A stretch of DNA of 64,000 nt from Thermoplasmata archaeon (GTDB lineage Archaea; Thermoplasmatota; Thermoplasmata; Lutacidiplasmatales; UBA184): NCBI GenBank assembly GCA_052326445.1, contig JBKQNC010000014.1, forward strand, positions 12,470 through 76,469, in the 5' to 3' direction. This document shows, piece by piece, positions 27,493-61,119 of the stretch (its first letter is position 1; each line of letters opens with the position of its first letter). A model generated the notes under the pieces. It was not told the origin of the DNA. It saw nothing but the letters and a program-made list of their open reading frames with translations, and made no database searches. The position numbers and the translations under genes were made by a program.

Positions 27493-28467
27493 CTAGGCGG
27501 GAACCGGGGTCGGGCAGTACGCCTCGGCGAGGTAATCGGAGATGTCCCGGATTTCGACGCCCTTCGGCACCACCCGGTTCAGGTTCGCGAGGCACAGAGG
27601 GCACGCGGTGACGACGTTCGGGTTACAGGCGGCGAGCTGCTCGACCCTCCGCCGAGCGATCTCGGCCGACTTGCCCGGGAAGAGGGTCTCGAGCGGCCCG
27701 CCGCAGCAGAACGTGAGCTTCCCCGAGAGCTCCGGTTCGTCGAGCGTGAGGCCCCCCTCCGCGAGAAGGCGGCGGGGCTGTTCGACGACCCCCTCGTAGC
27801 GGGCGTAGACACAGGAGTCGTGGATCGTCGCGGTCCGGTCGAGGTTCCTGAGTCGCTTCATCGGGCGCTCCGCGAGTACTTCGAGGTAGCTCTCGACGCG
27901 GACGTCGAACCCGGGCACGACCCTGGGATAGACGCTCCGCAGCATGTTGGTCGTATGCGGGTCGACCGTGATCGCCCGCTTGACCCCGTTCTCCCGGAGC
28001 ACCCCGGCGACGTACTTCGCGTGCCGAGCGAAGGCGGAATCCAGCCCCTCGTCGTGCGCGAGCGCGCCGGTGTAGAGGTCCTTTTCGTACAGATACCCGA
28101 AGTCGACCCCCGCCGCCCGGAGGAGGCGGGTGATGTTGCGGAGACGCTCGTTGTAGGCGCGCCGTTCGCCCGCGGTCGTCCGGGCCATGAACGGCGTGAG
28201 GTTGACGATCTTGTTCATCGACCGCGCGACGCCGAAGAGCCAGCCGTACGCCGAGTGCTCGAACTTGGCGAGCTGGCGGCTCATGGCGTTGATCGTCGGG
28301 ACCATCTGCCACATCTGGCCGGTGTAAAGGACGGTCTCCCCTCCGCGCGGGAGGTGGAGCCCCTTCGCCCATGCGGTTGACGTGCGTCGGCTGAGGGGGA
28401 GCGCGCTGCGGCGCTTGCGCAGGTTGTCCCCGAGCATCCCGAGCGTGCTCTCGATCGGAACCGGCAT
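27493..28467 (-). CDS. HdrB-like CCG-domain (Fe-S)-binding protein (heterodisulfide reductase subunit B family)
   Basis: Two Cys-rich CCG regions: 'TIHDSCVYARYEGV' and 'LTFCCGGPLETLFPG...VVTACPLCLANL'. Confidence 0.75.
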   Translation of the reverse strand: MPVPIESTLGMLGDNLRKRRSALPLSRRTSTAWAKGLHLPRGGETVLYTGQMWQMVPTINAMSRQLAKFEHSAYGWLFGVARSMNKIVNLTPFMARTTAGERRAYNERLRNITRLLRAAGVDFGYLYEKDLYTGALAHDEGLDSAFARHAKYVAGVLRENGVKRAITVDPHTTNMLRSVYPRVVPGFDVRVESYLEVLAERPMKRLRNLDRTATIHDSCVYARYEGVVEQPRRLLAEGGLTLDEPELSGKLTFCCGGPLETLFPGKSAEIARRRVEQLAACNPNVVTACPLCLANLNRVVPKGVEIRDISDYLAEAYCPTPVPA

Positions 28468-28476
28468 GGATACCTC

Positions 28477-28785
28477 TTAGACCTCCACGAGGCCGTGGAC
28501 CTCGCGATTCAGGTAGTTCCGGAGCGTCCGGACGTTCTCCGCGATGTGGATCCCGGCCGGACAGTTCGCCTCGCACATCCGGCACAGGAGGCACGAGAAG
28601 ATCGTTTCCTCGTTCCCGAGGACCGCCTCGCGGTCGCCGAGAAGGGCGTACCGGAACAGCCGTCGGGGCAACAGCTCAAGCCCGAGCGGGCACAACGCCG
28701 TGCACGTCCCGCAGTTGATGCAGAGACGGGCGTCGAACTCCCCGCCGAGGTGGAGGTCGTCGAGGAAGCGGGTATCGACCTTCAT
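28477..28785 (-). CDS. HdrC-like 4Fe-4S ferredoxin-domain protein
   Basis: 'CINCGTCTALCPLG' and 'CLLCRMCEANCPAG' (two Fe-S cluster-binding motifs). Confidence 0.7.
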   Translation of the reverse strand: MKVDTRFLDDLHLGGEFDARLCINCGTCTALCPLGLELLPRRLFRYALLGDREAVLGNEETIFSCLLCRMCEANCPAGIHIAENVRTLRNYLNREVHGLVEV

Positions 28786-29033
28786 GTTCGGTCCCCGACC
28801 AGTTCATACCGGAAGTAGTCGTCCGCGCGTCCCTTCGGGAGGTCCCGAACCGTCCCGTACCGCCGCATCGCCATCACCCACAGCGTGACCTCGGGGACCG
28901 GGGCCCCCAGGGCGGCTGCGATCTCGGGGAGCGTCTTCGGACCCGCGCGCAGGGCCGCGACCACCCGGTCCCGCTCGACCATCCCGTCGCGCAGGACCTC
29001 GTGAAGGTCCCGGAGGGTGGCTTTCGACGTCAT
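28782..29033 (-). CDS. Small winged-helix-like protein embedded in the hdr-like operon
   Basis: 83 aa from the internal start M62 of ORF 28782..29216 ('MTSKATLRDLHEVLRDGMVERDRVVAALRAGPKTLPEIAAALGAPVPEVTLWVMAMRRYGTVRDL'). 4-nt overlaps on both sides. Confidence 0.4.
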   Translation of the reverse strand: MTSKATLRDLHEVLRDGMVERDRVVAALRAGPKTLPEIAAALGAPVPEVTLWVMAMRRYGTVRDLPKGRADDYFRYELVGDRT

Positions 29034-30760
29034 GCCGCCTCCTTGGCGAGCGCGTCGATCATGGCGGTGATCTGCGCGTTGGTGTACCCCTGGACGGAGA
29101 CGGCCTGCTTCGGACACACGGGCACGCAGGCGCCCTCGCCCTTGCAGAGGACGCGATTGATCTCGGCCACGCGCCGGTCCCCGTACTCGACGGGGCTGAC
29201 GGCACCGTAGGGGCACGCCTTAGTGCACTCATCACACCAGACGCAGAGGGTCGGGTCGACCTTCGCGACCAGGGGGTCGAGGTCGACGTATCCCTTCATC
29301 AGCAGCGCGCCCGCCTTCGCGACCGACGCGAGGACGCTCGTCACGCTCTCCGCCACGTTCTTAGGCCCCTGGGCAGCCCCCGCGATGAACACCCCGTCCA
29401 CGACGGTCTCGACCGGTCGGAGCTTGACGTGGATCTCGTGGAAGAACCCGTCCTGGCCGAGGGGCAGCTTCAGGACCCGGGCGAGCGCGTCGTTCTCCCG
29501 CGCCACCATGCCGGTGACCAGCACGACCAAGTCGGGGCGGATCTCGACGTCCTCGCCCCGCATCAGCCGGTCGTGGACCGAGACCCGGAGCCCCTCGCCG
29601 TCCCGCGTGACGGAAGGGAGCGAGTCCTCCCCGTAGCGGAGGAAGACGGACCCGGCGCGGAGCGCCCGCTCGTAGAGGGCCTCGTACTTGCCGTACGTCC
29701 GGATGTCCCGGAAGAGGTGGAACTGGTGGACCGACGGGTCCCGGGCGCTCACGACGGTCGCGATGTGGGAGGTCGCGCTGCAGCAGTACCGGGAGCAGTA
29801 GAGGTGCGGCCCCGTCTCCTTCGATTCCTCGCGGGAGCCGACGCAGTAGACGTAGGCGATCGTCCGCACCGGCCGCCCCCGATACACGAGCGGGCCCGGA
29901 TGGTTCGCGAGGAGCTCTTTGAACTCCGGGAGCGTGAGCACTCCGTCGAGGCCGTACCCGAACTCGCCCGTCGCCGGGGAGTACGGGTCGAACCCGGTCG
30001 CGACGACGATCGCACCGACCGTGAGGGCGATCGAATCACCCGTCGCCGTACGAAGGCGCACGCGGAACTCGCCGACGCGGCCCTCCTTCTCGACGAGCTC
30101 GGTCGAAAGATAGAGGACGACGTTTTCCCGTCGGCGGACCTCCTCGAGAAGCCCGTCGATCAACGCCCGCCCGTTCTTGTCGTTGGGGAAGAGCGAACCC
30201 CAACGGACGACCTGGCCACCGGCCTGCTCGGCCTTCTCGACCAGGTGGACGGAGATGCCGAGGTCCGAAAGCGCGAGGGCGGCCCGGAGGCCGGCGACCC
30301 CGGCCCCGACGATCAGGACCTTGGGGATCGTCTCGACCCGCATGCGCTCGAGGGGGGTCGAGAGCGCGGTCTTCGCGACCCCGGCCCGGACGAGCTTCAG
30401 GGCCTTCTCGGTCGCGGCGGGTCGGTCGTGGGTATGGGCCCATGAACATTGTTCCCGAATGTTGACCTGGGTGTACTCGTACGGGTTCAGGCCGGCCCGC
30501 TGGGTCATGGCCCGGAAGGTCGCCGTGTGCAGCTTCGGGGAGCACGAGCAGACGACGACCCCGTCCAGCTTTCTCTCGCGGATCTCCTGGATCACGGCCT
30601 GCTGCGCGGCGTCGGAGCAGGCGAACATCTGGACCTGGGTCGAGACGACCATCCCCTCTTTCGCGGCCTCCGCCCGGACCTTCTCGGTGTCGACGTAGTC
30701 GGAGATGTTCCCGCCGCACTGGCAGATCACGACCCCAATCCGTCGAGGGGGGTCGGTCAT
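29030..30760 (-). CDS. HdrA-like FAD- and Fe-S-containing flavoprotein (heterodisulfide reductase subunit A family)
   Basis: 576 aa; FAD fold 'KVLIVGAGVAGLRAALALSDLGISVHLVEKAEQAGGQ'; C-terminal ferredoxin motifs 'CVWCDECTKACPYGA', 'CKGEGACVPVCPKQA'; N-terminal Cys cluster 'VVICQCGGNI...CSCSP'. Confidence 0.8.
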   Translation of the reverse strand: MTDPPRRIGVVICQCGGNISDYVDTEKVRAEAAKEGMVVSTQVQMFACSDAAQQAVIQEIRERKLDGVVVCSCSPKLHTATFRAMTQRAGLNPYEYTQVNIREQCSWAHTHDRPAATEKALKLVRAGVAKTALSTPLERMRVETIPKVLIVGAGVAGLRAALALSDLGISVHLVEKAEQAGGQVVRWGSLFPNDKNGRALIDGLLEEVRRRENVVLYLSTELVEKEGRVGEFRVRLRTATGDSIALTVGAIVVATGFDPYSPATGEFGYGLDGVLTLPEFKELLANHPGPLVYRGRPVRTIAYVYCVGSREESKETGPHLYCSRYCCSATSHIATVVSARDPSVHQFHLFRDIRTYGKYEALYERALRAGSVFLRYGEDSLPSVTRDGEGLRVSVHDRLMRGEDVEIRPDLVVLVTGMVARENDALARVLKLPLGQDGFFHEIHVKLRPVETVVDGVFIAGAAQGPKNVAESVTSVLASVAKAGALLMKGYVDLDPLVAKVDPTLCVWCDECTKACPYGAVSPVEYGDRRVAEINRVLCKGEGACVPVCPKQAVSVQGYTNAQITAMIDALAKEAA

Positions 30761-33495
30761 GCGTGCACCTCCGCCCGCTTCAGGTAGGCGGCGATCTGGG
30801 CCGCGGCGGCCTCGGAGTGGAGGATCGTGTCCGGGATGTCCCGGACGGCGGTCGCGGACCCGATGACGAACACCCCGTCGAGGCTCGTCTGGCCCGGCTG
30901 GAGCTCCTCGTCGGTCTCGCGCACGTAGGAGTAGGCGTCCCTCGCGGGGGCTCCCTGCGGGAAGAGACGGAAGGCACCCTGGTTGGGCAGGAGACCGGTG
31001 GCGAGGACGACGAGGTCGTGCCGGGCCTCCTTCGGGCCCCCCTCGCCCTCGATGTCCTCGTAGTGGACGATCAGGTCGTTGTTCTCAGCCTCCTCGACGC
31101 GGGCGACCTTGCCCCGGCGGAAGTTGACGCTCATGCCCTTCGTCTGCTGGAAGAACTCCTCGTACCCCTTGCCGAACGCCCGGATGTCGATGTAGTAGAC
31201 CGTGACGTCCGCGAGCGGGAGGGCGCCCATCAGGAGCTGCGCCTGCTTCATCGAGTACATGCAGCAGACGCGGGAGCAGAGCCGGTTCCCGACCTGCTCG
31301 TCGCGCGAGCCGGTGCAGAGGACGAACGCGACGTTCGACGGGGCCTTCCCGTCGGAGGGGCGGACGACGGCATTGAACGGACGGGTCGGCGCGAGGATCC
31401 GGTCCATCTGGGGGCCCGTGATCACGTTCGGGAACCGCCCGAACCCGAACGCGGGCTTGAGGCGGGCGTCGAACGGGGAGAATCCGGTCGCGAGCGCGAC
31501 GGACCCGACCGAGACGGTCTCGTGGCGGGCGCGCATGCCGAGGTCGATCGCGTCGGCGGGGCACGCGGCGATGCACTGGCGACATTCGCAGCAGACCCCG
31601 CAGTCGAGGCACCGGTTGGCGCTCGAGCGGGCCTCCGCCTCCCCGAGGGCGCCTTCGTACTCGTCGAACGAGGCGAGCCGCTCGGCCAGCGGACGGCGGG
31701 GGAGCGCGACGGGCTCCCGCCGGGTCCCCCCGTCGCGGGCACGGGCGAGGACCGGGGCTCGGTCGGCGACCGGCAATCGGTCGTCGAACCGGACGCTGTC
31801 GGCGGGCACGCCCCGAAGATACCGGTCGATGGAGAACGCGGCCCGCTTCCCCTGCCCGATCGACGCGACGATCATGGAGGGGCCGGTGACTGCGTCGCCG
31901 CCCGCATAGACGCCCGGGACCGGGGTGGCGAGCGTCTCGGGGTCCACCGTGATGGTTCCGTTGCGCGCGAGGGGGAGCTCGGAGGCGAACGCCCCCGTAT
32001 TCGGCGCGAGTCCGATCGCGGTGATGACCACCTCGGTCGGGACGGGTTCCGACACGGTGCGGTCGAACGTAGGACGGAAGCGGTGCTCGGCGTCGAAGAC
32101 GGCGGTGCACCGGATTAACTCGATGGCCAGGACCTTCCGGTCGTAGCCCAGGATCTGGCCGACGCCCCAGGAGTTCGTGACAACGACCCCTTCGTCCTCG
32201 GCCTCTCGGACCTCCCAGGCGTGGGCCGGCATCTCAGGCCGGGACTCGAGGCAGAACAGCTTGACCGACCGGGCCCCAAGACGGAGCGCGCTGCGGGCCG
32301 AATCGATCGCGACGTTGCCCCCGCCGATGACGACCACGACCTTCCCGCGGAGGTCGGGCGGGTGCCCGTCGTTGACGAGGTGGAGGAACTCCATCGAGTC
32401 GATCACGCCGTCGAGAGCTTCGCCCGGGACCCCGAGCTTGCGCCCCCCCCGGTCGCCAGTCGCGACGAACACCGCATCGAACCCGGCGCTCCTCAGCTCT
32501 GCGATCGAGGAGACTCGGTGCCCGGTTTCGATCTGGACCCCGAGGGCGGTGATGTTCTCGACGTCACGTCGGAGTACCTCCTTCGGCAACCGGTAGGACG
32601 GGATCCCCCAGCGCATGATGCCCCCGGGCTCTCCATCGGCCTCGAAGACGGTCACGTCGTAACCGGATTTTCCCAGGAAGAACGCCGCCGAGAGCCCGGA
32701 CGGGCCGGAGCCCACGATGGCGACCCGATGGCCCCGGCGCTCGGCCGGGGGCCCGTACTCCGGACTTGGGTGGGCGGCGTAGTATCGGTCCGCCATGAAC
32801 CGCTTGATCCCGCGGATCGAGACCGTGCCCTCGAGCTCGGCGCGGGTACACTGCTCCTCACAGGGGGCGTAGCAGGCTCGGCTCAGGACGCCCACCAGCG
32901 GGGCGTCCTCTAGGTGTTGGCGGAACGCCTCGTCGTACTGCCCCGCACGGACCAGGGAGACGTAGCCATGGGGCTTCACGCCCGCGGGGCAGGCGAACGA
33001 GCATGGCGAGGTTCCCGTCCGGGTGATGACCGCCTTCTTCGGGACGGCCTGCGGAAAGGCGATGTGGGCCGCGCGACGCGCGGCGAGGTCGTAGTTGAAC
33101 TCGTCTGGAACGTTCACGGTGCACACGGGCTCGCACAACGCGCACCCGGTGCACTTCGCGGCGTCGATGAACTTCGGCTTCTGGGTCAGGTGGACCTGGA
33201 ATCCCCCTGCGGGTCGCGGCGTGATATCGTCGACCTCGGAGTAGACGAGCGCCCGCACGTTGGGGTGGTTGTTCACCGCCGCCATCTTCGGCGTGGAGAT
33301 GCAGCTGGCGCAGTCGAGGGTAGGGAACACCTTGCTGAGGAGGATCATCCGTCCCCCGACGGAGGGCTCCTTTTCGACGAGCAAGACCTTGAACCCCATA
33401 TCGCCGAGGTTGAGAGCCGACTCCATCCCCCCGACGCCGGCCCCGACGACGAGCACGTCGTAGTCGGGTTTCGGCCGCCCGTCGGACGCGGGCAT
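30757..33495 (-). CDS. HdrA-like flavoprotein with an inserted complete GltD/NfnB/SudA-type NAD(P)H-dependent FAD oxidoreductase module (912 aa)
   Basis: N-terminus 'YDVLVVGAGVGGMESALNLGDMGFKVLLVEKEPSVGGRM' plus 'CTGCALCEPVC'. Central 'HRVAIVGSGPSGLSAAFFLGKSGYDVTVFEADGEPGGIMRWGIPSYRLPKEV...KVVVVIGGGNVAIDSARSALRLGA...VYAGGDAVTGPSMIVASIGQGKRAA' is a GltD-like NAD(P)H and FAD domain. 'CLDCGVCCECRQCIAACP' then the HdrA C-terminal domain 'CTGSRDEQVGNRLCSRVCCMYSMKQA'. Confidence 0.8.
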   Translation of the reverse strand: MPASDGRPKPDYDVLVVGAGVGGMESALNLGDMGFKVLLVEKEPSVGGRMILLSKVFPTLDCASCISTPKMAAVNNHPNVRALVYSEVDDITPRPAGGFQVHLTQKPKFIDAAKCTGCALCEPVCTVNVPDEFNYDLAARRAAHIAFPQAVPKKAVITRTGTSPCSFACPAGVKPHGYVSLVRAGQYDEAFRQHLEDAPLVGVLSRACYAPCEEQCTRAELEGTVSIRGIKRFMADRYYAAHPSPEYGPPAERRGHRVAIVGSGPSGLSAAFFLGKSGYDVTVFEADGEPGGIMRWGIPSYRLPKEVLRRDVENITALGVQIETGHRVSSIAELRSAGFDAVFVATGDRGGRKLGVPGEALDGVIDSMEFLHLVNDGHPPDLRGKVVVVIGGGNVAIDSARSALRLGARSVKLFCLESRPEMPAHAWEVREAEDEGVVVTNSWGVGQILGYDRKVLAIELIRCTAVFDAEHRFRPTFDRTVSEPVPTEVVITAIGLAPNTGAFASELPLARNGTITVDPETLATPVPGVYAGGDAVTGPSMIVASIGQGKRAAFSIDRYLRGVPADSVRFDDRLPVADRAPVLARARDGGTRREPVALPRRPLAERLASFDEYEGALGEAEARSSANRCLDCGVCCECRQCIAACPADAIDLGMRARHETVSVGSVALATGFSPFDARLKPAFGFGRFPNVITGPQMDRILAPTRPFNAVVRPSDGKAPSNVAFVLCTGSRDEQVGNRLCSRVCCMYSMKQAQLLMGALPLADVTVYYIDIRAFGKGYEEFFQQTKGMSVNFRRGKVARVEEAENNDLIVHYEDIEGEGGPKEARHDLVVLATGLLPNQGAFRLFPQGAPARDAYSYVRETDEELQPGQTSLDGVFVIGSATAVRDIPDTILHSEAAAAQIAAYLKRAEVHA

Positions 33496-33921
33496 TCAGG
33501 CCTCCGCGGCGACCCCGGGGAACTCGGCGAGCGTCTTGCCGAACTGCTTCATGTGGTTGACGAACGGTTCCGCGCAGACCGAGCAGATCGCGGCCGTCTT
33601 GACCCGACCCGGCTCGAGACCCCGTTCCTGGAGACGGGCCTGGGCCTGGTCGACGATATGCCCGGTCCGGGCCACGCAATCCGGTAGGAACGCGCACTCC
33701 GCTCCGTCGGCCGCCACGAAGACGCCGTCGAACCCGGCGTCGATCGCGTGGACGATCCACGCCGGGTTGATCCCGCCGGAGCAGGGGACCGCGATGACCT
33801 GGACCGTCGCCGAGTAGTCCATGTGGGCGCTCCCCGCGAGGTCGATCCCCATGTCGGAGATCGCGTTCGTGGAGAACACCAGCACGCGCGGCCGCGGACG
33901 CGCGGGGCCCGGGTCGGTCAC
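33496..33921 (-). CDS. MvhD/FlpD-like (methyl-viologen-reducing hydrogenase delta subunit family) [2Fe-2S] electron-transfer protein
   Basis: 'RVLVFSTNAISDMGIDLAGSAHMDYSATVQVIAVPCSGGINPAWIVHAIDAGFDGVFVAADGAEC' matches the MvhD signature (PCSG...C). GTG start. Confidence 0.8.
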   Translation of the reverse strand: MTDPGPARPRPRVLVFSTNAISDMGIDLAGSAHMDYSATVQVIAVPCSGGINPAWIVHAIDAGFDGVFVAADGAECAFLPDCVARTGHIVDQAQARLQERGLEPGRVKTAAICSVCAEPFVNHMKQFGKTLAEFPGVAAEA

Positions 33922-34196
33922 TACTTGCCCCTTCGGACGTAGACGTGCCAGAGCCCGGCGGCCGGGAGGGTGCCCAGGTACTCATGGCCGACCTTCTTCG
34001 CCCAAAGCGGGACGTCCTCGGTCGTGCCCTCGTCCGACGAGATGATGTCCATTACCCCGTGCATCGGGACCGACGGGACCATCCGCTTCGCTTCCAACAG
34101 CGGGCCGGGGCAGGCAACGCCCCGGGCGTCCACGACCTTGTCGACCTTCAGGGCCTTCAGCTCCTCGATGTTCATGTTGGTTCCTCCGTGATTCAT
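33921..34196 (-). CDS. tusA: TusA-like sulfurtransferase (SirA/YedF/YeeD family, CPxP motif)
   Basis: 'DARGVACPGPLLEAKRMV'; the start may be M8 (34175). Confidence 0.7.
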   Translation of the reverse strand: MNHGGTNMNIEELKALKVDKVVDARGVACPGPLLEAKRMVPSVPMHGVMDIISSDEGTTEDVPLWAKKVGHEYLGTLPAAGLWHVYVRRGK

Positions 34197-34570
34197 CCGG
34201 GAAAGGGGGTCGGGGCGGCGAACCGGGTCGGCCCGACCGGGCGCCGACGCCGGGTCTCCGCGAGCAGGGCGCGGCGGACGATTTGGCAGCTTTTCGCGAG
34301 GATGGGGTTGCGGAGGCCGTAGCGGACCTCCCGGCCGTTCCGTTGCGCCCCGACGATGCCCCGGTCCTTCATCACGCGGAGATGCTGGGATGCGTTCGGG
34401 AGGGAGAGGTTCAGCCAGTCCGCGATCTCGGTGACCGTTCGCGGGCCCCGACCGAGCAGGTCGACGATTTGGAGCCGCTTCGGGTTCGCGAGCACGCGGA
34501 TCATGTCGGCCTCGAGCTCGAACCCTTCGGGGTCGAACGTCGTGGGCTGGGCGGGGCGGCGAGCGGTCAT
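34193..34570 (-). CDS. ArsR/SmtB family metalloregulator-like transcription factor
   Basis: Internal start M47 of ORF 34193..34708 (CAT at 34568-34570): 'MIRVLANPKRLQIVDLLGRGPRTVTEIADWLNLSLPNASQHLRVMKDRGIV'. Confidence 0.75.
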   Translation of the reverse strand: MTARRPAQPTTFDPEGFELEADMIRVLANPKRLQIVDLLGRGPRTVTEIADWLNLSLPNASQHLRVMKDRGIVGAQRNGREVRYGLRNPILAKSCQIVRRALLAETRRRRPVGPTRFAAPTPFPG

Positions 34571-34584
34571 CCGGTCCCGTGCCT

Positions 34585-35151
34585 CTAGATGAACAACGTC
34601 ATCCGGCTGCGGTCGGCGGCGTCGATGAACGACCCGACGTTCCCGTAGGTGATCCCGGAGATGAGCTCCTCCTTGTGGATCCCCATGAGGTCCATCGACA
34701 TCGTGCACGCGGTGAAGTGGACGCCTTGCTCTTGCGCCGACTTGATCAGCTCGGCCAGGCTCAGGACGTGCTTCTTCGCCATCTCCTTCTTGATCATCCG
34801 GGTGCCGAGGCCGGCCATCTTCATCTTCGAAAGCTGGAGGTGCTCCGGGCCGCGGGGCATCATGCGGCCGAACATCCCCTCGGTGACCGTCTTCTTCCCG
34901 TTGACGTGCACCGGTCCACCGCGGCGGAGCACGTTGAGCCCCCAGAACGTGAAGAAGATGTTCACGGGGAGGTCCATCGCGGCCGCGCCGTTCGCGATGA
35001 TCATCGCGGCGAGGACCTTGTCGAGGTCGCCGGAGAAGACCACCATCGACAGCCCGTTCTGCACCGGTGGGTTCGTCGCGGGTTCCTCGGTCGTAAGACC
35101 GAGGTCCTTGTGTAGGCCGGATTCGCTTGATTGGACCATTGCGCCTGACAT
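34585..35151 (-). CDS. DsrE/DsrF-like (DsrE2-type) sulfur-relay family protein
   Basis: 'LSMVVFSGDLDKVLAAMIIANGAAAMDLPVNIFFTFWGLNVLRR' and conserved Cys region 'HFTACTMSMDLMG'. Start taken at M21 (MSGAMVQ...) of ORF 34585..35211. Confidence 0.6.
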   Translation of the reverse strand: MSGAMVQSSESGLHKDLGLTTEEPATNPPVQNGLSMVVFSGDLDKVLAAMIIANGAAAMDLPVNIFFTFWGLNVLRRGGPVHVNGKKTVTEGMFGRMMPRGPEHLQLSKMKMAGLGTRMIKKEMAKKHVLSLAELIKSAQEQGVHFTACTMSMDLMGIHKEELISGITYGNVGSFIDAADRSRMTLFI

Positions 35152-35365
35152 CGTTCTACTCCTCAGGTTGCTTCCTTGCTCCTGCGGTTGCACACTTGCA
35201 GGATGATGCAAGCATGCGGAGCGACTCGCTAATACTCCCCGTCAACCCGGCTTGACTCCTCGAGCGGCGACCTCGGACACCTCGTCCCTCCCGCACGCGC
35301 GGTTCCCGGGGCCGACGGTATGCTTGAAGAACGACGCGCCTTTACGCGAACCGACAGGTGCGCTC

Positions 35366-37221: not shown

Positions 37222-37770
37222 GTGGCGGCCCGAAAAGCGAAACCGCACGTCGGGGCCCGGACTCACCGGGCCACCCCCCCACCCCGGAGGGAGGCCCCCC
37301 TCCGGGTGAACGGCGTGGACCGTCCGGTCTCCCTCGACCGGGACCGTAGCCTCCTCCACGTGCTCCGGGAGGAACTCGGGCTCACCGGCACCAAGTACGG
37401 GTGCGGGGAGGGCGAGTGCGGGGCCTGCAAGGTCCTGGTCGACGGGGTCGCGGTCCGGGCGTGCCAGACCCCCATCGGCGAGGTGGTCGGCCGTTCCGTG
37501 ACGACCATCGAAGGTCTCGCCGAGGGGGAGCGACTGCATCCGGTCCAGCAGGCCTTCCTCGATGCGGGCGCGTTCCAGTGCGGATTCTGCACGCCCGGGA
37601 TGATCCTCACCGCCGTCGCGCTCCTCGAGCGGAACCCCCACCCCAACGAGGCGGAGATCCGGACGGCGATGAACGGGAACCTCTGCCGCTGTGGCGGGTA
37701 CCTCCGCATCGTCGCGGCGGTCCAGGACGCGGCCCGGCAACTCCCGACCAACGGAGGCCGGATCCCATGA
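37222..37770 (+). CDS. [2Fe-2S]-binding small subunit of a xanthine dehydrogenase/CO dehydrogenase/aldehyde oxidoreductase-family molybdoenzyme (CoxS/CutS-like)
   Basis: 'GCGEGECGACKVLVDG' plant-type ferredoxin motif and 'QCGFCTPGMILTA...NLCRCGGY' second cluster. Confidence 0.85.
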   Translation: MAARKAKPHVGARTHRATPPPRREAPLRVNGVDRPVSLDRDRSLLHVLREELGLTGTKYGCGEGECGACKVLVDGVAVRACQTPIGEVVGRSVTTIEGLAEGERLHPVQQAFLDAGAFQCGFCTPGMILTAVALLERNPHPNEAEIRTAMNGNLCRCGGYLRIVAAVQDAARQLPTNGGRIP

Positions 37771-39893
37771 CCGCCACGGCCCCTTTCGACCTGCTCGCCC
37801 CGGGCGACCGGCCGTACTTCGACCGGCTCGGCCCGGGGCTCGTGGTCGTCCTTCCCGCCGAGCGACCGGGCGCCGGGGATTGGGGGCGCGGCGGTCCCCC
37901 CCACGGTGGGGCCTGGATCCACCTCGGCGAGGATGGGAGGGCCCACGCCTTCATCGGCAAAGTGGAGGTCGGCCAGGGAACCCGAACCGCACTCTCGCTG
38001 CTGATCGCGGAGGAACTGCACCTGCCGCTCTCCGCCGTAGAGCTCACCATGGGGGACACCGACGCCTGCCCCTGGGACATGGGTACCTTCGGCAGCCGTT
38101 CGATGCCCGATGCCGGGGAGCACCTCCGGCGTACGGGGGCGGCCGCGCGGGCGGCCCTGCGGGAACTCGCCGCCGCTTCCCTGGGTGTGCCGGCTGACGC
38201 GGTCGAACTCGAGGACGGTCTCGCTCGCTCCCCCAAGGGCGGCCCCCGCGCGAAGACGGTAGGGTACGGCAGCCTCGTGAAAGGCCTGCACCGGGTGGAG
38301 GTGGTCGCCCCCTCGACGCGACCCATCCCGCCCTCCGAATGGAGTCGAGCCGGCCTCCCCGCCGCCAACGTGGGCGGACGTGAGGTGGTGACCGGCGCGC
38401 AGCGGTACACCTCCGACCTTCACCCCGAGGGGATGCTGTACGGTAAGCTGCTCTTCCCCCCAACCCTCGGTGCGAAGCTGCTCAGCGTCGACCTGACCGC
38501 AGCCCAGGCCCTCCCCGGCGTGACGGCGCTCCGCGAGGGAGAGTTCGTCGGAGTCGCGGCGCCGGACTTGCTTACGGCCCGGGCTGCGTTGAAGGCGATC
38601 CGCTCCGAGTGGGCGACCCTCCCGCTCCCGTCTGAGCGCGACATCGTCGCCTACCTCCGACAGCACCCGGCCGAAGGCGAGGATTTCTGGGACGTGATCC
38701 ACCACGAGACCGGGGACACCAAGGCGGCGCTCGCCGCGGCCCCCGTAACGCTCCGCGCGACCTACACGACCGCCTACATCGCCCACGTGCCGATGGAGAC
38801 CCACGCGGTCCTTGCCGCCTGGGACGGTCCCCGCCTGACCGTGTGGATCGGGGCGCAGACCCCCTTCCGGGCGCGGGACGCGGTCTCCGATGCGCTCGGC
38901 ATTCCCCCGACGCTCGTCCGTATCATCGTCCCGCCCACGGGGTCCGGGTTCGGGGGCAAGCACGCGGGCGACCTCGCCGCCGGGGCGGCACGGCTCGCCA
39001 AGGCGACGGGCCATCCCGTCCGCATCGTGTACACCCGGGAAGAGGAGTTCACCCAGGCCTACCTGCGCCCGATGGCCGTGATCGACATCGAGGCCGGCGC
39101 GGATTCCGACGGGACGATCTCGGCCTGGAAGTTCCACGACCTGAACGCCGGCTCGGCGGCCGCGCGCATCCCGTACCGGGTGCCGAACCAGAGCATCGGC
39201 AACCAGCCCGCGGATTCGCCGCTGGCGCAGGGCTCCTACCGGGCGCTCGCCGCGACGGCGAACAACTTTGCCCGGGAATCGCACGTGGACGAGCTCGCGG
39301 CCCGGTTCCACGCCGACCCGGTCGAGTACCGCCTGCGCTTCCTCTCGGACGACCGCCTCTCGGCCGTGCTGCGCGCGGTCGCCGAACGGGCCCATTGGGA
39401 CTCCCGGCCGCGGCGCGCCGCCCGCCGCTCCGGCCGAGGACAGGGGATCGCGGTCGGCCTCGAGAAGGGCGGCCGTGTCGCCACCTTCGCCGAAGTGCGC
39501 GTCGGCGACGACCGGACGCTCGAGGTCGTCCTGATCGTCACGGGGTTCGAGTGCGGAGCGATCGTCCATCCGGCGAACCTGAAGAACCAGGTCGAGGGCG
39601 GCACGATCATGGCGCTCGGCGGCGCGCTCTTCGAAGCAGTCTCGTTCGAGAACGGCCGGATCATGAACCCCCGGCTCTCCCAGTACCGGGTCCCCCGCTT
39701 CCACGACGTCCCGCCCATCGAGGTCGTGCTCCTGGACCGGCGCGACCTGCCCTCCCAGGGCGGCGGCGAGACCCCCCTCATCGCCGTCGCACCGGCGATC
39801 GCCAACGCGATCTACGACGCCACGGGACAGCGTCTCCGTTCCCTACCGCTCGTCCCAGGGGGTGTCGTCCCCCGGGCCCCTTCGTCGGCGTAG
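37767..39893 (+). CDS. Molybdopterin-binding large subunit of the xanthine dehydrogenase/aldehyde oxidoreductase family (CoxL/CutL-like)
   Basis: 708 aa from M123 of ORF 37401..39893, with an ATGA overlap with the small subunit: 'KVEVGQGTRTALSLLIAEEL', 'GGFGGK', 'TGFECGAIVHPANLKNQVEGGTIMALGGALFE'. Confidence 0.85.
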   Translation: MTATAPFDLLAPGDRPYFDRLGPGLVVVLPAERPGAGDWGRGGPPHGGAWIHLGEDGRAHAFIGKVEVGQGTRTALSLLIAEELHLPLSAVELTMGDTDACPWDMGTFGSRSMPDAGEHLRRTGAAARAALRELAAASLGVPADAVELEDGLARSPKGGPRAKTVGYGSLVKGLHRVEVVAPSTRPIPPSEWSRAGLPAANVGGREVVTGAQRYTSDLHPEGMLYGKLLFPPTLGAKLLSVDLTAAQALPGVTALREGEFVGVAAPDLLTARAALKAIRSEWATLPLPSERDIVAYLRQHPAEGEDFWDVIHHETGDTKAALAAAPVTLRATYTTAYIAHVPMETHAVLAAWDGPRLTVWIGAQTPFRARDAVSDALGIPPTLVRIIVPPTGSGFGGKHAGDLAAGAARLAKATGHPVRIVYTREEEFTQAYLRPMAVIDIEAGADSDGTISAWKFHDLNAGSAAARIPYRVPNQSIGNQPADSPLAQGSYRALAATANNFARESHVDELAARFHADPVEYRLRFLSDDRLSAVLRAVAERAHWDSRPRRAARRSGRGQGIAVGLEKGGRVATFAEVRVGDDRTLEVVLIVTGFECGAIVHPANLKNQVEGGTIMALGGALFEAVSFENGRIMNPRLSQYRVPRFHDVPPIEVVLLDRRDLPSQGGGETPLIAVAPAIANAIYDATGQRLRSLPLVPGGVVPRAPSSA

Positions 39894-57213: not shown

Positions 57214-60200
57214 ATGCAAGCGAAGCGAACGGCCCGTACGTGGATAGTTTCTGGTCTGATCGTGTTCGCCCTCCTCGGGCTCGTGGCGGTTCCCCTCGGG
57301 GCCGCGCCCGCGCACGCTGCGACGGGAACTCTTGGGGCGGAGCGGGTTACGCCGGCCCTGGTGCCGTCCGGCTCCGTGGCGCCGCCGGGCGTCGCGGGCC
57401 TCTCCGTGCTCTCGACCGTCGGCATCACGCTGAATGAGACCGTCCCGGGCAACGTCACCTACCTCACGGTCAACGCGCCCAACTCGATCGTCTTCGACTC
57501 CGACAACGGCTACCTCTACGTGTCCGGGGCCACGCCGTTCATTGGGGTCGCCAACGCCGCCACCTACGTCCCCGTCAAGATCCTGCACAGTGGGTCGGGA
57601 ACCCCCACTGGCGGCCTCATCTACAGCGCCTCCAGCCAGGACGTGTACGCCGCGAACCCCGGCACGTCGACGGTCACGGTGGTCGGGCCCTCGAACTCAA
57701 TCGTCGCGAACGTGACGGTGGGGACGAACCCGGTCGCCCTCGTCTACAGCCCGAGCTCGGACGACGTGTACGTCGCCGATGCGGGGGCCAACGAGGTCAC
57801 GGTGCTCGACTCGTCCAACGCGGTCGTCGCCACCCTTTCGGTGGGGACGGACCCGGTGGCGTTGGGGTACGACCCCGCCGACGGGGATGTCTACGTCGCG
57901 AACCACGGCTCCTCGGATGTCAGTGTCATCTCCTCCGCGAACGCCGTCACGGCGACCGTCGGGGCCGGCAACGAGCCGACCGCCGTCGGCTACAGCCCTT
58001 CCTCGTCGGACATGTACGTCACGAACGCGGTGTCGGACAACCTGACCGTGATCTCCGGGACGGCGAGCGTGGCGTCCGTCTCGACGCTCGGGGACCCGAC
58101 CGCGCTGGGATACAGTCCCGCCTCGACGGACCTCTATGTCGCCGACACGGGGGCCTCCACCGTGACGATCGTCGACCCGGGGAATTCCGTGATCGGGCAT
58201 CTCACCGTAGGAGCCGGCCCGGACGCGTTCGCCTACAACCCGGAGAGCCGGACCTTGGTCGTCGGCAACGGTGGCGAGACGAACGCCTCGGTCCTCACCG
58301 AGGACAACACCGTCGCGGGCTCCGCGCGGCTCGGTGTGGGCCCCGTCAGCTTGGTCTACGACCCGACCTCGGAGAACGTGACGGGGGTGGGGCCCCAGTT
58401 CGCCGGGGTCGCGGCGGTCTACGCCCAGTTCGGACCGCTCTACGGTCTGGAAGGGCCGAGCGGGCCCGGCGACTCGACCTTTGCGGGAGGCGTTTACAGC
58501 CCGATCACGCAGGAGACCTACTTCACCGGGTACGGCTACGCGTCCGTGTTTGCGTATGAAGCGAACTTCAACTACGGACCCTTCATCACCGTCGGGGACG
58601 AACCGACTGCGATCGCCTACAGCCCGACGACGGAGGACCTCTACGTCACCGATTCCGGCGCGAGCAATGTGTCCATCATCGGGCCGCAGGACACCGTGAT
58701 CAAGACCCTCCATGTGGGCGATAACCCCGACATGGTGGCCTACAGCCCGACCACCCACGACATGTACGTCGCGAACGCGGGGACCGACAACGTCACGGTG
58801 ATCGGGACCTCCAACACGATCGTCGCGACCCTGGTGGTGGGGTACTATCCCAGCAACGTGGGGTACAGCCCGCAGTCGACCGACATGTACGTCATCAACG
58901 AGGAATCGGACAACGTCACCGTCATCAGCCCGTCCAACGTCGACCTCGTGAACATCACGGTCGGGATCGTCCCGTACGCGTTCGCCTACAGCCCGACCAC
59001 CGGGGATGTTTACGTCGCGAATGCCCTCTCGGACAACGTGACCGAGATCCTCCCGGACAACATGGTCAACGGGGGCGGGATCGAGGTCGGGGAGTTCCCC
59101 GTCGCGATGACGTACAGCGCCGCCACGGGCGACCTCTACGTCGCCAACGAGGCCGGTGCGAACGTCACCGTGATCGCCCCCTCCGGTAGCACCGCGAGCC
59201 TTCCCGCCGGTGACTACCCCTTCTCGCTCACGTACGACCCCGGACTCGAGGACGTGATCGTCGTGAACTACCTCGGGGAGAACGCGACCGTTTACGGTCC
59301 GTTGAACACGGTCGTCGCGAACCTACCGACCTTGACGGAGCCGACGTTCACCGTCGTCAACGCGGCGAACGGGGTCGTCTACATCTCCGACTACGGCTCG
59401 GACGAGATCTCGACCTACGGCTTCCAGACAGGGGGCGGGTACTTCTGGTCCGGCCCCGAGCAGGCCGTCTACAGTCCCACGACCGAGGACGTCTACGTTC
59501 TCGACCTCTACGACAACAACGTCACGGTCATCGGACCGAACGACCAGATCGTGGCGAACTTCTCCTTCCCGGGCTACCTCTCCGGGCTCGCCTACAGTCC
59601 CGTGACCCAGGACGTCTACGTCTTGGGGTCCGTCGTGACGGTCATCGGTCCCCACAACACGGTCCTCACCACCCTGCCCGCGGGCTCCGACGCGACGTCG
59701 ATCGCCTTCGGGCCCGCGTCCGGGGACATCTACGTCGCCACCGGAGTGAACGTGACGGCCATTGGCAGCTCGAACACGTTGGTGGCGACCATTGGCACCG
59801 GGGGCCACCCGTCCGAGCTCCTGTACGACCCCGCCTCCGACGAGATGCTCGTGGCGAACGACTACGGTGGCAACGTCACCGCGATCGCCGCCGACAACAC
59901 CGTCGCCGCCGTGATTTCCATCCCGACCTTCGACCCGTACTCCAACGGGAACCCGTTCGTCTACGACGCGGCGACCGGGGACGTCGCCCTCGCCGACGGG
60001 TATGGGGAGGGCGTGAGCTTCATCGGCGCCTCGAACACCGTCGTAGGGTTCGCCTCGACCGGCGTCACCCTTTCGTTGCAGGTCGCCTACAGCCCGGTGA
60101 CCCAGGACGTCTACGCATTGAACAACCTCGCCTCGAACCGCTCGCTCGAGAACGTGACGGTCATCAACGGCGCCTTCCACCAGGTCGCCAACCTGCCGTC

Positions 60201-61119
60201 GGCCCCGATCGATTGGGTGGGCTACTGGCCGGGCGCCCAGGCGATTGCGCTCGACGAGTCCCCCTACACGAGCGTGACCCTCCTCGGGGCCGCGAACACC
60301 CCTATCGGCAGTCTCCCCCTCGGCTCCGTTCCGGAGGTGGGCGTCTACTCGAACGCGACGGGGGATCAGTTCGTGCCGAATGAAGGATCGGGGACGGTCT
60401 CGATCGTCGGCCATGCCTTCACGGTCACGGTCGAAGAGCAGGGGCTGCCCTCGGGGACCGCCTGGTCGGCGACCGTCAACGGAGCCACGAACGTCTCGAC
60501 CGGCGCTTCGATGATCTGGTGGTTCGGCAACGGCTCCTACTCGTTCACTCCCGGGGCGGTGCCCGGGTACGTCGCAACCCCCTCAGGGGGTACGGCGACC
60601 GTGAACGGAGCCGCCGTGACGGAGAAGATCACTTACTCCACGGTGGCGCCCGCGACCTACGCGGTGACATTCACCGAGTCGGGGCTGCCCGGCGGGTCCA
60701 GTTGGTCCGTGACGCTCAACGGGACTCCATCCTCGGGCACCGGCACCTCGATCGCGTCCGCGAGCCTGCCGAACGGTACGTACACGTTCTCGGTCGCGTC
60801 GGTGGCCGGGTATACCGCGAACCGCACCAGCGGCACCGTCCATGTAGAGGGCGCCGCCGTCACCGTCCTGATCGCGTTCACCACCGTAGTTCCCCAGCAG
60901 ACTTCGGCGGCCCCCGGACCCCCGATCTGGCTCTGGGCCGTGATCGCGGTCGTCATCGTGGCGGTGATCGCGGTCGTCGCCCTGCTCCTGATGCGACGGC
61001 GGAAGCCGTCCGCGACCGCCCCGCCCGGGAACTCGGGCTCCGCCGCCCCGGGCGCTCCGCTCCCACCGCCCGCGGGCCCGCCACCGGGCGCGTCCGGCCC
61101 GCCGCCCGGCGCGGTGTAA
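57214..61119 (+). CDS. Giant surface protein with YVTN-family beta-propeller repeats, signal peptide, C-terminal TM anchor and Pro-rich cytoplasmic tail
   Basis: Signal 'WIVSGLIVFALLGLVAVPLGAAPAHA'. About 25 repeats of '...DxYVAN/YVTD...NVTVI'. C-terminal 'IWLWAVIAVVIVAVIAVVALLLMRRRK' then 'PPGNSGSAAPGAPLPPPAGPPPGASGPPPGAV'. Confidence 0.75.
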   Translation: MQAKRTARTWIVSGLIVFALLGLVAVPLGAAPAHAATGTLGAERVTPALVPSGSVAPPGVAGLSVLSTVGITLNETVPGNVTYLTVNAPNSIVFDSDNGYLYVSGATPFIGVANAATYVPVKILHSGSGTPTGGLIYSASSQDVYAANPGTSTVTVVGPSNSIVANVTVGTNPVALVYSPSSDDVYVADAGANEVTVLDSSNAVVATLSVGTDPVALGYDPADGDVYVANHGSSDVSVISSANAVTATVGAGNEPTAVGYSPSSSDMYVTNAVSDNLTVISGTASVASVSTLGDPTALGYSPASTDLYVADTGASTVTIVDPGNSVIGHLTVGAGPDAFAYNPESRTLVVGNGGETNASVLTEDNTVAGSARLGVGPVSLVYDPTSENVTGVGPQFAGVAAVYAQFGPLYGLEGPSGPGDSTFAGGVYSPITQETYFTGYGYASVFAYEANFNYGPFITVGDEPTAIAYSPTTEDLYVTDSGASNVSIIGPQDTVIKTLHVGDNPDMVAYSPTTHDMYVANAGTDNVTVIGTSNTIVATLVVGYYPSNVGYSPQSTDMYVINEESDNVTVISPSNVDLVNITVGIVPYAFAYSPTTGDVYVANALSDNVTEILPDNMVNGGGIEVGEFPVAMTYSAATGDLYVANEAGANVTVIAPSGSTASLPAGDYPFSLTYDPGLEDVIVVNYLGENATVYGPLNTVVANLPTLTEPTFTVVNAANGVVYISDYGSDEISTYGFQTGGGYFWSGPEQAVYSPTTEDVYVLDLYDNNVTVIGPNDQIVANFSFPGYLSGLAYSPVTQDVYVLGSVVTVIGPHNTVLTTLPAGSDATSIAFGPASGDIYVATGVNVTAIGSSNTLVATIGTGGHPSELLYDPASDEMLVANDYGGNVTAIAADNTVAAVISIPTFDPYSNGNPFVYDAATGDVALADGYGEGVSFIGASNTVVGFASTGVTLSLQVAYSPVTQDVYALNNLASNRSLENVTVINGAFHQVANLPSAPIDWVGYWPGAQAIALDESPYTSVTLLGAANTPIGSLPLGSVPEVGVYSNATGDQFVPNEGSGTVSIVGHAFTVTVEEQGLPSGTAWSATVNGATNVSTGASMIWWFGNGSYSFTPGAVPGYVATPSGGTATVNGAAVTEKITYSTVAPATYAVTFTESGLPGGSSWSVTLNGTPSSGTGTSIASASLPNGTYTFSVASVAGYTANRTSGTVHVEGAAVTVLIAFTTVVPQQTSAAPGPPIWLWAVIAVVIVAVIAVVALLLMRRRKPSATAPPGNSGSAAPGAPLPPPAGPPPGASGPPPGAV

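Follow-up and report, generated by a model that had tools for sequence, protein, structure and literature searches.

A nine-gene Hdr-like operon with a GltD-containing HdrA and a TusA/DsrE2 pair in a soil Thermoplasmata archaeon

Organization of the operon

The window analysed here, a 64,000-nucleotide stretch of the genome of a Thermoplasmata archaeon (contig JBKQNC010000014.1), contains at positions 27493-35151 an operon in which genes similar to those of heterodisulfide reductase (Hdr) stand next to genes for the sulfur-carrier proteins TusA and DsrE2. A check of the open reading frames (ORFs) of the window verified the coordinates of nine tightly packed, co-directional ORFs on the minus strand, and profile searches agree with the gene content that a first-pass annotation, made from the letters of the sequence, had assigned to them. 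In the order of transcription, they encode a DsrE2-like protein, ArsR, TusA, an MvhD-like protein, two HdrA-type flavoproteins (the long HdrA-L and the short HdrA-S), a winged-helix protein, an HdrC-like ferredoxin and an HdrB-like protein (Table 1). The overlaps of 1-4 nt described in that annotation exist at some of the junctions, but the others are gaps of 0-14 nt, including the 14 nt between the dsrE2 stop codon and the arsR ATG.

Table 1 Genes and regulatory element of the operon (positions in the window)
Feature	Position	Strand	Basis
DsrE2-like sulfur-carrier protein, 188 aa	34585..35151	-	PF13686, E 1e-55
ArsR/SmtB-family repressor, 125 aa	34193..34570	-	HTH_5, E 6e-13
TusA sulfur carrier, 91 aa	33921..34196	-	PF01206, E 1e-15, CPGP motif
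MvhD-like iron-sulfur protein, 141 aa, variant form	33496..33921	-	FlpD, E 3.5e-25
HdrA-L, 912 aa	30757..33495	-	HdrA profiles at the ends; GltD/PRK12771 at ~150-650
HdrA-S, 576 aa	29030..30760	-	HdrA profile positions 1-231 and 322-653
Winged-helix protein, 83 aa	28782..29033	-	AlphaFold2 (AF2) model; no Pfam or NCBIfam match
HdrC-like ferredoxin, 102 aa	28477..28785	-	Two CxxCxxCxxxCP motifs; Fer4_17, Fer4_8
HdrB-like CCG protein, 324 aa	27493..28467	-	One CCG domain
Palindrome TTGCA-N6-TGCAA, probable ArsR operator	35196..35211		45-60 nt upstream of the dsrE2 start

The nine-gene operon was confirmed as real in the soil archaeon. Independent gene calls of 576, 83, 102 and 324 aa are found in four public assemblies, together with one of 912 aa where that gene is complete, and the 83-aa protein is 100% identical to its counterpart in a Thermoplasmata metagenome-assembled genome (MAG) at NCBI. 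The window has a G+C content of ~69%, and the third-position GC content amounts to 0.85-0.92 in ORFs of at least 100 codons, a filtered list that covers seven of the nine genes and does not include arsR and tusA. One public long-read contig (contig_1118, 1.25 Mb, locus L083) has an identical operon in which hdrA-S appears as a 240-aa fragment with two small antisense calls. A pseudogene or an assembly artefact in the operon was considered on account of this broken gene and rejected; since hdrA-S is intact in the window and in three other assemblies, the break is probably an indel error of that one assembly.

Among the scanned ORFs of the window, there were no hydrogenase, lipoate-binding protein (LbpA), Mcr, Apr or Dsr genes. 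The lack of a hydrogenase in the window and the presence of a single HdrBC pair, both pointed out in the first-pass annotation, were verified.

Distribution and conservation of the module

A scan with one genome per species revealed 396 stretches encoding relatives, and the 80 best (near full length, 46-84% identity) were analysed; gene counts were taken on the 57 of these loci that have full flanking DNA. The module is present in at least 80 archaeal and bacterial species, namely, in Thermoplasmata and at least seven bacterial phyla. The carriers include Acidobacteriota, Gemmatimonadota (Gemmatimonadales), Actinomycetota (Thermoleophilia, Gaiellales), Dormibacteria, Alphaproteobacteria, Bacteroidota (Bacteroidales), Aminicenantes, Firmicutes, Symbiobacterium, Syntrophothermus and others. 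According to tblastn with the nine window proteins, the order TusA-MvhD-HdrA(L)-HdrA(S)-winged helix-HdrC is the same in all 80 loci, and the TusA-MvhD-HdrA(L) order with tusA directly upstream of mvhD was found in 75/77. On the 57 full-flank loci, TusA, MvhD and an HdrC domain were counted in every case, HdrA-S in 56, DsrE2 in 55, the winged-helix protein in 47, HdrB in 32 and ArsR in 23. Thus, the linkage of TusA and DsrE in related genomes, whose failure the first-pass annotation had named as fatal to its proposal, holds across both domains.

All-against-all clustering of the flanking ORFs and a Pfam scan of the 136 immediate neighbours revealed no universally linked extra catalytic gene. 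Recurrent neighbours are lineage-specific regulators (Crp type in Bacteroidales, further ArsR proteins, sigma-54 activators and HxlR), and sporadic ones are additional DsrE proteins, cysteine desulfurase (adjacent in 4 loci), OsmC and thioredoxin.

HdrA-L carries a GltD/NfnB insertion

HdrA-L is an HdrA core interrupted by a second flavoprotein module. Its residues 10-158 and 630-910 align with the thioredoxin-reductase-like flavin adenine dinucleotide (FAD) domain of solved HdrA structures (E 1e-100) and keep the [4Fe-4S] cluster of that domain; the N-terminal domain is missing, as is the C-terminal ferredoxin domain. The interrupting region (window positions 31546-33048) matches GltD/PRK12771 with an E value of 9e-143, aligns end to end, over residues ~160-640, with NfnB-type structures (9bov, E 3e-88; NfnA 9n5u, 1e-83; T. 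maritima NfnB 4ylf, 4e-64) and splits the inserted ferredoxin domain, so that CxxCxxCxxxC motifs at residues 115 and 635 flank it. Both nucleotide motifs are intact (GSGPSG for FAD, of the GxGxxG type, and GGGNVA for NAD(P)H, of the GxGxxA type), and the iron-sulfur ligands Cys165, 169, 208, 212 and 216 are invariant in 77 HdrA-L sequences. Judged by these motifs and alignments, the insert is a complete GltD/NfnB NAD(P)H:FAD module with two predicted [4Fe-4S] clusters, as the first-pass annotation had claimed. All other cluster cysteines of HdrA-L are invariant as well, including C62 and C65 of the DCxxC motif (FPTLDCASC; 77/77).

The nucleotide-site motif at HdrA-L residues 415-419 (window positions 32239-32253) is 'CLES', where NfnB has 'YRRT' and NfnB, Stn and NfnABC share 'YRR[ST]'. 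By the usual Rossmann-fold rule, the acidic residue in 'CLES' suggests NADH rather than NADPH as the nucleotide of the window organism; the NAD(P)H link proposed earlier stands as far as the completeness of the module is concerned and would be narrowed to NADH. The L-E form was found in 43/77 HdrA-L sequences (Thermoplasmata, Actinomycetota, Dormibacteria and Symbiobacterium) and the NfnB-like 'YRR' (R-R) form in 33/77, a split which suggests that the family comprises NADH and NADPH subtypes. Some Thermoplasmata loci (L014, L018 and L037) possess an additional HdrA-GltD paralog whose motif is of the YRR (NADPH-like) type and which in L014 (15727-19470) lies ~2 kb downstream of the first cluster and has its own TusA-like and winged-helix genes.

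The HdrA-GltD fusion itself is already published and common, and no member of it has a known substrate. The same NfnB/GltD insertion was described by Chadwick et al. in HdrA9-11 of ANME-1 (anaerobic methanotrophic archaea; PMC9012536), a 2025 survey named it 'type III HdrA' and found it in ANME-1 and Bathyarchaeota (PMC12054007), and in sulfate reducers a related HdrL adjoins MvhD and HdrABC (PMC5947623). No mcr gene is present in the 64-kb window, and the close relatives are soil Thermoplasmata MAGs and bacteria.

HdrA-S and the HdrA-S/HdrA-L pair

HdrA-S has the parts of HdrA that HdrA-L is missing and is itself without the inserted ferredoxin domain (Table 1). In 61/61 sequences, it has no cysteine at the DCxxC position, and its N-terminal cysteines are invariant. 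The best profile and PDB matches of both proteins are methanogen HdrA/HdrA2, with E values of 1e-100 to 1e-106 against methanogen HdrA compared with 1e-31 to 1e-38 against sHdrA (6tjr); the NCBIfam equivalog cut-off of 1100 was missed by both (462 for HdrA-S, 437 for HdrA-L). At residue 542 of HdrA-S (window positions 29135-29137), the C-terminal ferredoxin domain has CxxExxCxxxC as its second cluster motif, and across the orthologs this position is occupied by Cys (29), Glu (23) or Gly (9). Because of these three residues, the type of cluster bound there may differ between lineages.

In the methanogen enzyme, the N-terminal HdrA cluster is completed in trans by the DCxxC cysteine of the partner HdrA, and a heterodimer logic has been proposed for the HdrA pairs of ANME (PMC9012536). 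The complementarity of HdrA-S and HdrA-L, which holds in the window and its orthologs (61 S and 77 L sequences), parallels this logic. From the complementary domains and ligands of the two HdrAs, we infer that S and L form an obligate heterodimer. The DCxxC cysteine of L would then ligate the N-terminal cluster of S in trans, as in methanogen HdrA, and the heterodimer would contain one N-terminal cluster, one inserted-ferredoxin/GltD branch and one MvhD docking domain. Such a pair would hold two FADs, with a third FAD in the GltD module.

The terminal module occurs in two forms

The two [4Fe-4S] sites predicted earlier for the HdrC-like protein were found, and their eight cysteines are invariant in 71 sequences; the matches to HdrC and QmoC models are weak (HdrC score 48.9, cut-off 160). 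For the HdrB-like protein, no HdrB equivalog model matched. The first-pass annotation spoke of CCG domains in the plural, but only one such domain bears cysteines: there is one noncubane CX(n)CCG...CxxC motif with conserved C219, C254, C255, C289 and C292, and cysteines are absent from the N-terminal lobe in all 40 sequences. The fold matches EtfD and HdrB, the best structural match being an EtfD-type CCG module, and in the sequence alignment 'DPHT' (residues 169-172) falls on 'CPHC' of EtfD, with His171, invariant in 40/40 sequences, at the place of EtfD His583. In EtfD, this histidine completes the coordination of the noncubane cluster, which is thereby non-catalytic, and the EtfD homologs FadF and DgcB are without the first cluster (PMC13083937).

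An HdrC plus HdrB terminal module is present in 39 loci, with the two proteins fused in 2 of them. In 30 bacterial loci there is no CCG protein, and the HdrC domain is fused to 3-6 predicted transmembrane segments; this membrane domain has a Nitrate_red_gam match, weak similarity to the NarI family and conserved histidines, which corresponds to the QmoC/HdrE architecture. TusA and DsrE2 are kept with both forms. The two classes mirror the known alternation between QmoABC and QmoAB-HdrBC (PMC10504309). Because His171 aligns with the EtfD ligand and because QmoC-like proteins replace HdrB with TusA/DsrE2 retained, HdrC-HdrB is probably an electron outlet or inlet rather than the site of the TusA/DsrE2 sulfur reaction.

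In several loci (L011:14067-19560, L012 and L052:17405-18601), a second, Qmo-like set adjoins the module on the opposite strand. Its members are an HdrA-like protein of 859 aa to which an MvhD domain is fused, either a QmoC-like protein or HdrCB, and a protein with an electron-transfer flavoprotein (ETF) domain.

Sulfur carriers, MvhD-like protein and winged-helix protein

TusA has the fold and the CPxP active-site cysteine of its family (PF01206 score 57.8, cut-off 28.6), and this residue, Cys29, is invariant in 80/80 sequences; the score against the E. coli TusA equivalog model is below the threshold (35.7 vs 78). The soluble DsrE2-like protein has a single invariant cysteine, Cys149 (69/69). 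It belongs to Pfam DrsE_2 only (it scores 84.5 with the NCBIfam DsrE2 model, where 210 is required), and no transmembrane segment was predicted in it, in particular not the two helices of the Allochromatium type.

The MvhD signature reported in the first-pass annotation is borne out by the FlpD match, but the canonical N-terminal CCxxC is missing: in the alignment to M. wolfeii MvhD, 'VFSTNAIS' stands there. Five cysteines are invariant in 81 sequences, among them those of a C-terminal CxxC (C113, C116). The presence of this CxxC in place of the missing CCxxC suggests either that the ligands are arranged differently or that there is an additional reactive pair of cysteines.

The 83-aa protein contains no cysteine and is modelled as a winged-helix fold (AF2, predicted local distance difference test score 87). 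A fold search led to nothing but generic ArsR/MarR-type folds, with no hint of a function, and the family is narrow, with 75 representatives at E<=1e-10 among 1.84 billion. In a Bacteroidales locus (L062), the protein is fused to the C-terminus of HdrA-S; because of this fusion, it is probably a structural subunit and not the 'MarR regulator' of its database label.

Regulation and genomic context

Upstream of dsrE2 lies the palindrome TTGCAGGATGATGCAA, which occurs once in the window against an expectation of 0. With at most two mismatches, it is present at -41 to -62 of dsrE2 in 14/14 ArsR-bearing Thermoplasmata loci, and in Thermoplasmata loci without an ArsR gene the best match has at least three mismatches. 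The ArsR protein scores 75.6 bits against NCBIfam HTH_metalloreg (cut-off 55), and the cysteine of its alpha-5 helix ('AKSCQIV') is conserved in nearly all cluster-linked orthologs. It does not have the two sensing cysteines of the persulfide-sensing repressors BigR/SqrR; the bacterial ArsR orthologs carry a second cysteine, but their two cysteines lie at other positions. Thus, the ArsR-type control proposed in the first-pass annotation is supported by a conserved operator-like palindrome, from which ArsR probably represses the operon, with release through the conserved cysteine; a thiol-based, autoregulated switch is a reasonable reading of this arrangement. A TATA-like 'AGTATTA' is located ~20 nt upstream of the palindrome, a spacing at which the expected start site would be covered by a bound repressor.

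The operon is flanked by unrelated genes for hydrolases, a xanthine-dehydrogenase-family enzyme, peptide and amino-acid catabolism and phosphate uptake. The plus strand at 37222-39893, ~2 kb from the operon, encodes a CoxS-like [2Fe-2S] subunit together with a molybdopterin subunit (830 aa) of the xanthine/aldehyde oxidoreductase family; they have no evident link to the operon. The long catabolic region at 394-20747 contains genes for three class-III aminotransferases, two aldehyde dehydrogenases, a peptide ABC transporter, saccharopine dehydrogenase, an amidohydrolase and glutamine synthetase; this gene content suggests that the host is a heterotroph using peptides and amino acids. Farther away, a 1301-aa NHL/beta-propeller repeat protein (57214-61119) adjoins a 755-aa protein with a C-terminal KaiC-like ATPase/DUF7504 domain (61183-63450).

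Proposed function

From these genes, we infer a soluble complex of the Hdr/Qmo type, equipped with several flavins and a large number of iron-sulfur clusters, that has its own sulfur-carrier pair and repressor. Most likely, its task would be to interconvert sulfane sulfur bound to TusA/DsrE2 and sulfide in a reaction coupled to NAD(H), with HdrCB or quinone as the second path, a proposal whose chances we regard as evenly balanced. In such a complex, a single bifurcation-type flavin core within the S/L heterodimer would serve three branches. NAD(H) would be reached through GltD and the inserted ferredoxin clusters, that is, through the branch that reduces ferredoxin in methanogens. HdrC-HdrB, or in the bacterial form the QmoC-like protein with a presumed quinone, would constitute an interchangeable outlet. 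The remaining branch would run via MvhD together with the C-terminal ferredoxin side, and its partner would be sulfane sulfur held as a persulfide on TusA/DsrE2, which would react at the flavoprotein/MvhD side in a two-electron reaction.

For the direction of electron flow, the potentials concerned are -320 mV for NAD, -270 mV for S(0)/H2S, -75 mV for menaquinone and -402 mV for thiosulfate cleavage. We can put forward NADH-driven reduction only tentatively, and likewise, with slightly less weight, the oxidation of sulfide or sulfane sulfur with bifurcation to NAD+ and a high-potential outlet. It is improbable, in our estimation, that the complex is an undescribed bifurcating sulfide/sulfane-sulfur oxidoreductase making NAD(P)H directly from reduced sulfur. 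In that case, a reaction like that of sulfide:quinone oxidoreductase (SQR) at an HdrA flavin would load sulfane sulfur onto TusA/DsrE2, and the two electrons (about -270 mV) would be split uphill to NAD(P)+ via GltD and downhill to quinone or an HdrCB partner.

Several points weigh against an NAD(H)-coupled conversion of carrier-bound sulfane sulfur. With S(0)/H2S near -270 mV, NADH-driven sulfur reduction needs no bifurcation, and heterotrophs gain little by forming NADH from sulfide. The potentials can be read in either way, however: all three ports would be used if sulfide oxidation were split between NAD+ and quinone, and likewise if NADH were bifurcated to a thiosulfonate of low potential and to quinone. 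A further objection is that, apart from HdrB, no site at which sulfur chemistry could be catalysed was recognised in the complex; also, His171 of the HdrB-like protein could be displaced, in which case DsrK-like catalysis would be feasible. The cysteine set of the MvhD-like protein is altered and no partner was identified, the window ArsR has a single cysteine and scores 41.3 against a BigR cut-off of 155, and TusA and DsrE2 could be cofactor-maturation proteins instead of substrate carriers.

Alternative explanations

If HdrB were catalytic, its CCG site would reduce a persulfide, trisulfide or heterodisulfide bound to TusA/DsrE2 as the high-potential reaction, with NAD(P)H as the donor and ferredoxin as the low-potential acceptor. 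The HdrB-like protein keeps one complete CX(n)CCG...CxxC motif, as does DsrK. TusA and DsrE2 share one sulfur-relay world with DsrC/TusE. The layout of the operon parallels HdrABC/HdrL-MvhD and Flx-Hdr, which are thought to reduce DsrC (PMC5947623). However, the 30 loci with a QmoC-like protein and no CCG protein keep TusA and DsrE2, and the invariant His171 falls on the ligand by which the cluster of EtfD becomes non-catalytic (PMC13083937). Homolytic disulfide cleavage by Hdr requires a second cluster, which is lacking here, and the branch that carries the GltD module is the one normally leading to ferredoxin. We therefore consider this explanation unlikely and the CCG site of HdrB a doubtful candidate for the sulfur chemistry.

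A somewhat less likely option is that the complex does not bifurcate at all and is an ArsR-induced, NADH-dependent persulfide/disulfide reductase or a system for sulfide detoxification and reactive-sulfur homeostasis, with the clusters as a mere wire. The conserved ArsR cysteine and the operator agree with such a role, as do the OsmC, thioredoxin and cysteine desulfurase neighbours in other genomes, and the staphylococcal cst system has domains of the TusA and DsrE types that work behind an SQR; but SQR and NSR/Npsr do the persulfide/sulfide job as single polypeptides, and the fully conserved core of two HdrAs and three branches argues for coupled electron flow. Quite improbable is a supply of sulfur by TusA/DsrE2 for cofactor assembly or repair, in which case the complex would act on ferredoxin and quinone like FixABCX/EtfABCX. 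NADH bifurcation to quinone plus ferredoxin is an established logic, no sulfur-catalytic site was recognised and cysteine desulfurase is adjacent in 4 loci, whereas the linkage of TusA/DsrE2 in 55-57 of 57 loci, in two domains and with both types of terminal module, speaks against it, as does the fact that dedicated TusA plus DsrE pairs are otherwise tied to dissimilatory sulfur enzymes (PMC11094781). Two further assignments are disfavoured. A sulfur-oxidising sHdr system converting sulfane sulfur to sulfite is very improbable: tusA and dsrE-family genes do adjoin hdr-like genes as in shdr clusters, but there is a single HdrC/HdrB set with one cluster site, LbpA was found neither in the ORFs of the window nor in the top families of the 136 neighbouring ORFs, and both HdrAs are far closer to methanogen HdrA than to sHdrA. 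That same affinity to methanogen HdrA/HdrA2, together with the occurrence of type III HdrA in ANME-1 and Bathyarchaeota, could point to the heterodisulfide reductase (CoM-S-S-CoB) of a methane-metabolising archaeon; this is hardly credible, since all Hdr subunits score far under the equivalog cut-offs, HdrB is without one of the two catalytic clusters, the window has no mcr or hydrogenase gene, and the same operon occurs in Acidobacteriota, Actinomycetota and Bacteroidales.

Flavin-based electron bifurcation has its model in the HdrA-based complexes, and cytoplasmic sulfur metabolism is defined by TusA/DsrE relays; the module described here joins both, as eight conserved core genes (plus arsR in many lineages) with a built-in NAD(H) port. 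The carrier lineages are common in soils, peat, sediments and anoxic habitats in both domains. If the sulfur link is true, the module would represent a new enzyme class in the cryptic sulfur cycle of non-sulfidic soils and a simpler, asymmetric model for the wiring of an HdrA core. If the operon encoded the oxidoreductase outlined above, abundant soil archaea and bacteria would obtain NAD(P)H from sulfur without reverse electron transport. The comparison of the loci yields testable structural rules: an obligate heterodimer of complementary HdrAs, swappable HdrCB/QmoC outlets, a one-cluster, His-ligated HdrB and a winged-helix subunit.

Comparison with known systems

The first-pass annotation took the operon for a possibly undescribed system. 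This holds in part: the GltD-in-HdrA fusion is published and common, but a description of the whole TusA-MvhD-HdrA(L)-HdrA(S)-winged helix-HdrCB/QmoC-DsrE2 module was not found in the accessible literature, and the review of HdrA modules by Appel et al. (2021) may mention it. Thus, the components and the fusion are known; what looks undescribed is the module as a whole, along with its breadth, the two forms of its outlet, the HdrB with a single cluster and the winged-helix subunit.

Among single modules, NfnB/SudA/GltD proteins share the full-length alignment with FAD, NAD(P)H and two [4Fe-4S] sites (E 1e-60 to 1e-88 against solved structures); here, however, the module lies inside an HdrA, the YRR phosphate-binding motif is changed to CLE in this lineage, and neither the operon nor the window has a gene for an NfnA-type partner ([2Fe-2S] plus a second FAD). 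The CCG modules of EtfD, FadF and DgcB have the five-Cys noncubane motif and the histidine of the other lobe in common with the HdrB-like protein (PMC13083937), but the latter is soluble and separate from the ferredoxin domain; it carries neither a membrane nor a haem domain, and the operon encodes no ETF partner for it. The sHdr clusters share the linkage of hdr-like genes with tusA and dsrE-family genes; the operon differs from them in having MvhD and GltD modules and in the lack of LbpA, of a second HdrBC set and of a short sHdrA-type flavoprotein.

Methanogenic HdrABC-MvhAGD shares with the operon the HdrA fold and cofactor motifs, HdrC, MvhD and the logic of the trans-ligated N-terminal cluster. 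In contrast to that enzyme, the four domains of HdrA are distributed between two polypeptides, NAD(H) stands in for free ferredoxin, and HdrB has one cluster site instead of two; MvhAG, FdhAB or F420 electron-input enzymes were found neither in the window nor among the conserved neighbours. Qmo likewise combines a pair of adjacent HdrA-like flavoproteins with an MvhD-type module, and its terminal module is an HdrC-cytochrome b membrane fusion or else soluble HdrCB (the form in the window operon); it too belongs to cytoplasmic sulfur metabolism. Unlike in Qmo, MvhD is encoded by a separate gene, one of the HdrAs carries an NAD(P)H module, and there is no Apr or Sat (aprBA, sat) in the window or the neighbours.

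HdrABC/HdrL-MvhD (Syntrophobacter Sfum_0819-0824; HdrL of Desulfobacterium) and FlxABCD-HdrABC have in common with the operon HdrA, HdrB, HdrC and MvhD-like proteins, the absence of a hydrogenase and a large HdrA-like protein with an NAD(P)H domain; the presumed substrate there is a small sulfur-relay protein, DsrC. In the present operon, TusA/DsrE2 stand instead of DsrC, there is no extra iron-sulfur protein, HdrB is functionally truncated, and a winged-helix subunit is present. Type III HdrA differs in its setting: the module described here is linked with TusA and DsrE2, with a subunit of the winged-helix type and with either a QmoC-like protein or an HdrB that has one cluster, has no linked mvhADG, fdh or multiple hdr genes, carries the nucleotide motif GxGxxA followed by CLES, and resides in soil Thermoplasmata of a non-methanogen type and in many bacteria. 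Nevertheless, type III HdrA and HdrA9-11 show the same ~500-aa NfnB/GltD interruption of the inserted ferredoxin domain (PMC12054007, PMC9012536), and for HdrA9-11 of ANME, pairing with a second, complementary HdrA paralog has likewise been proposed (PMC9012536).

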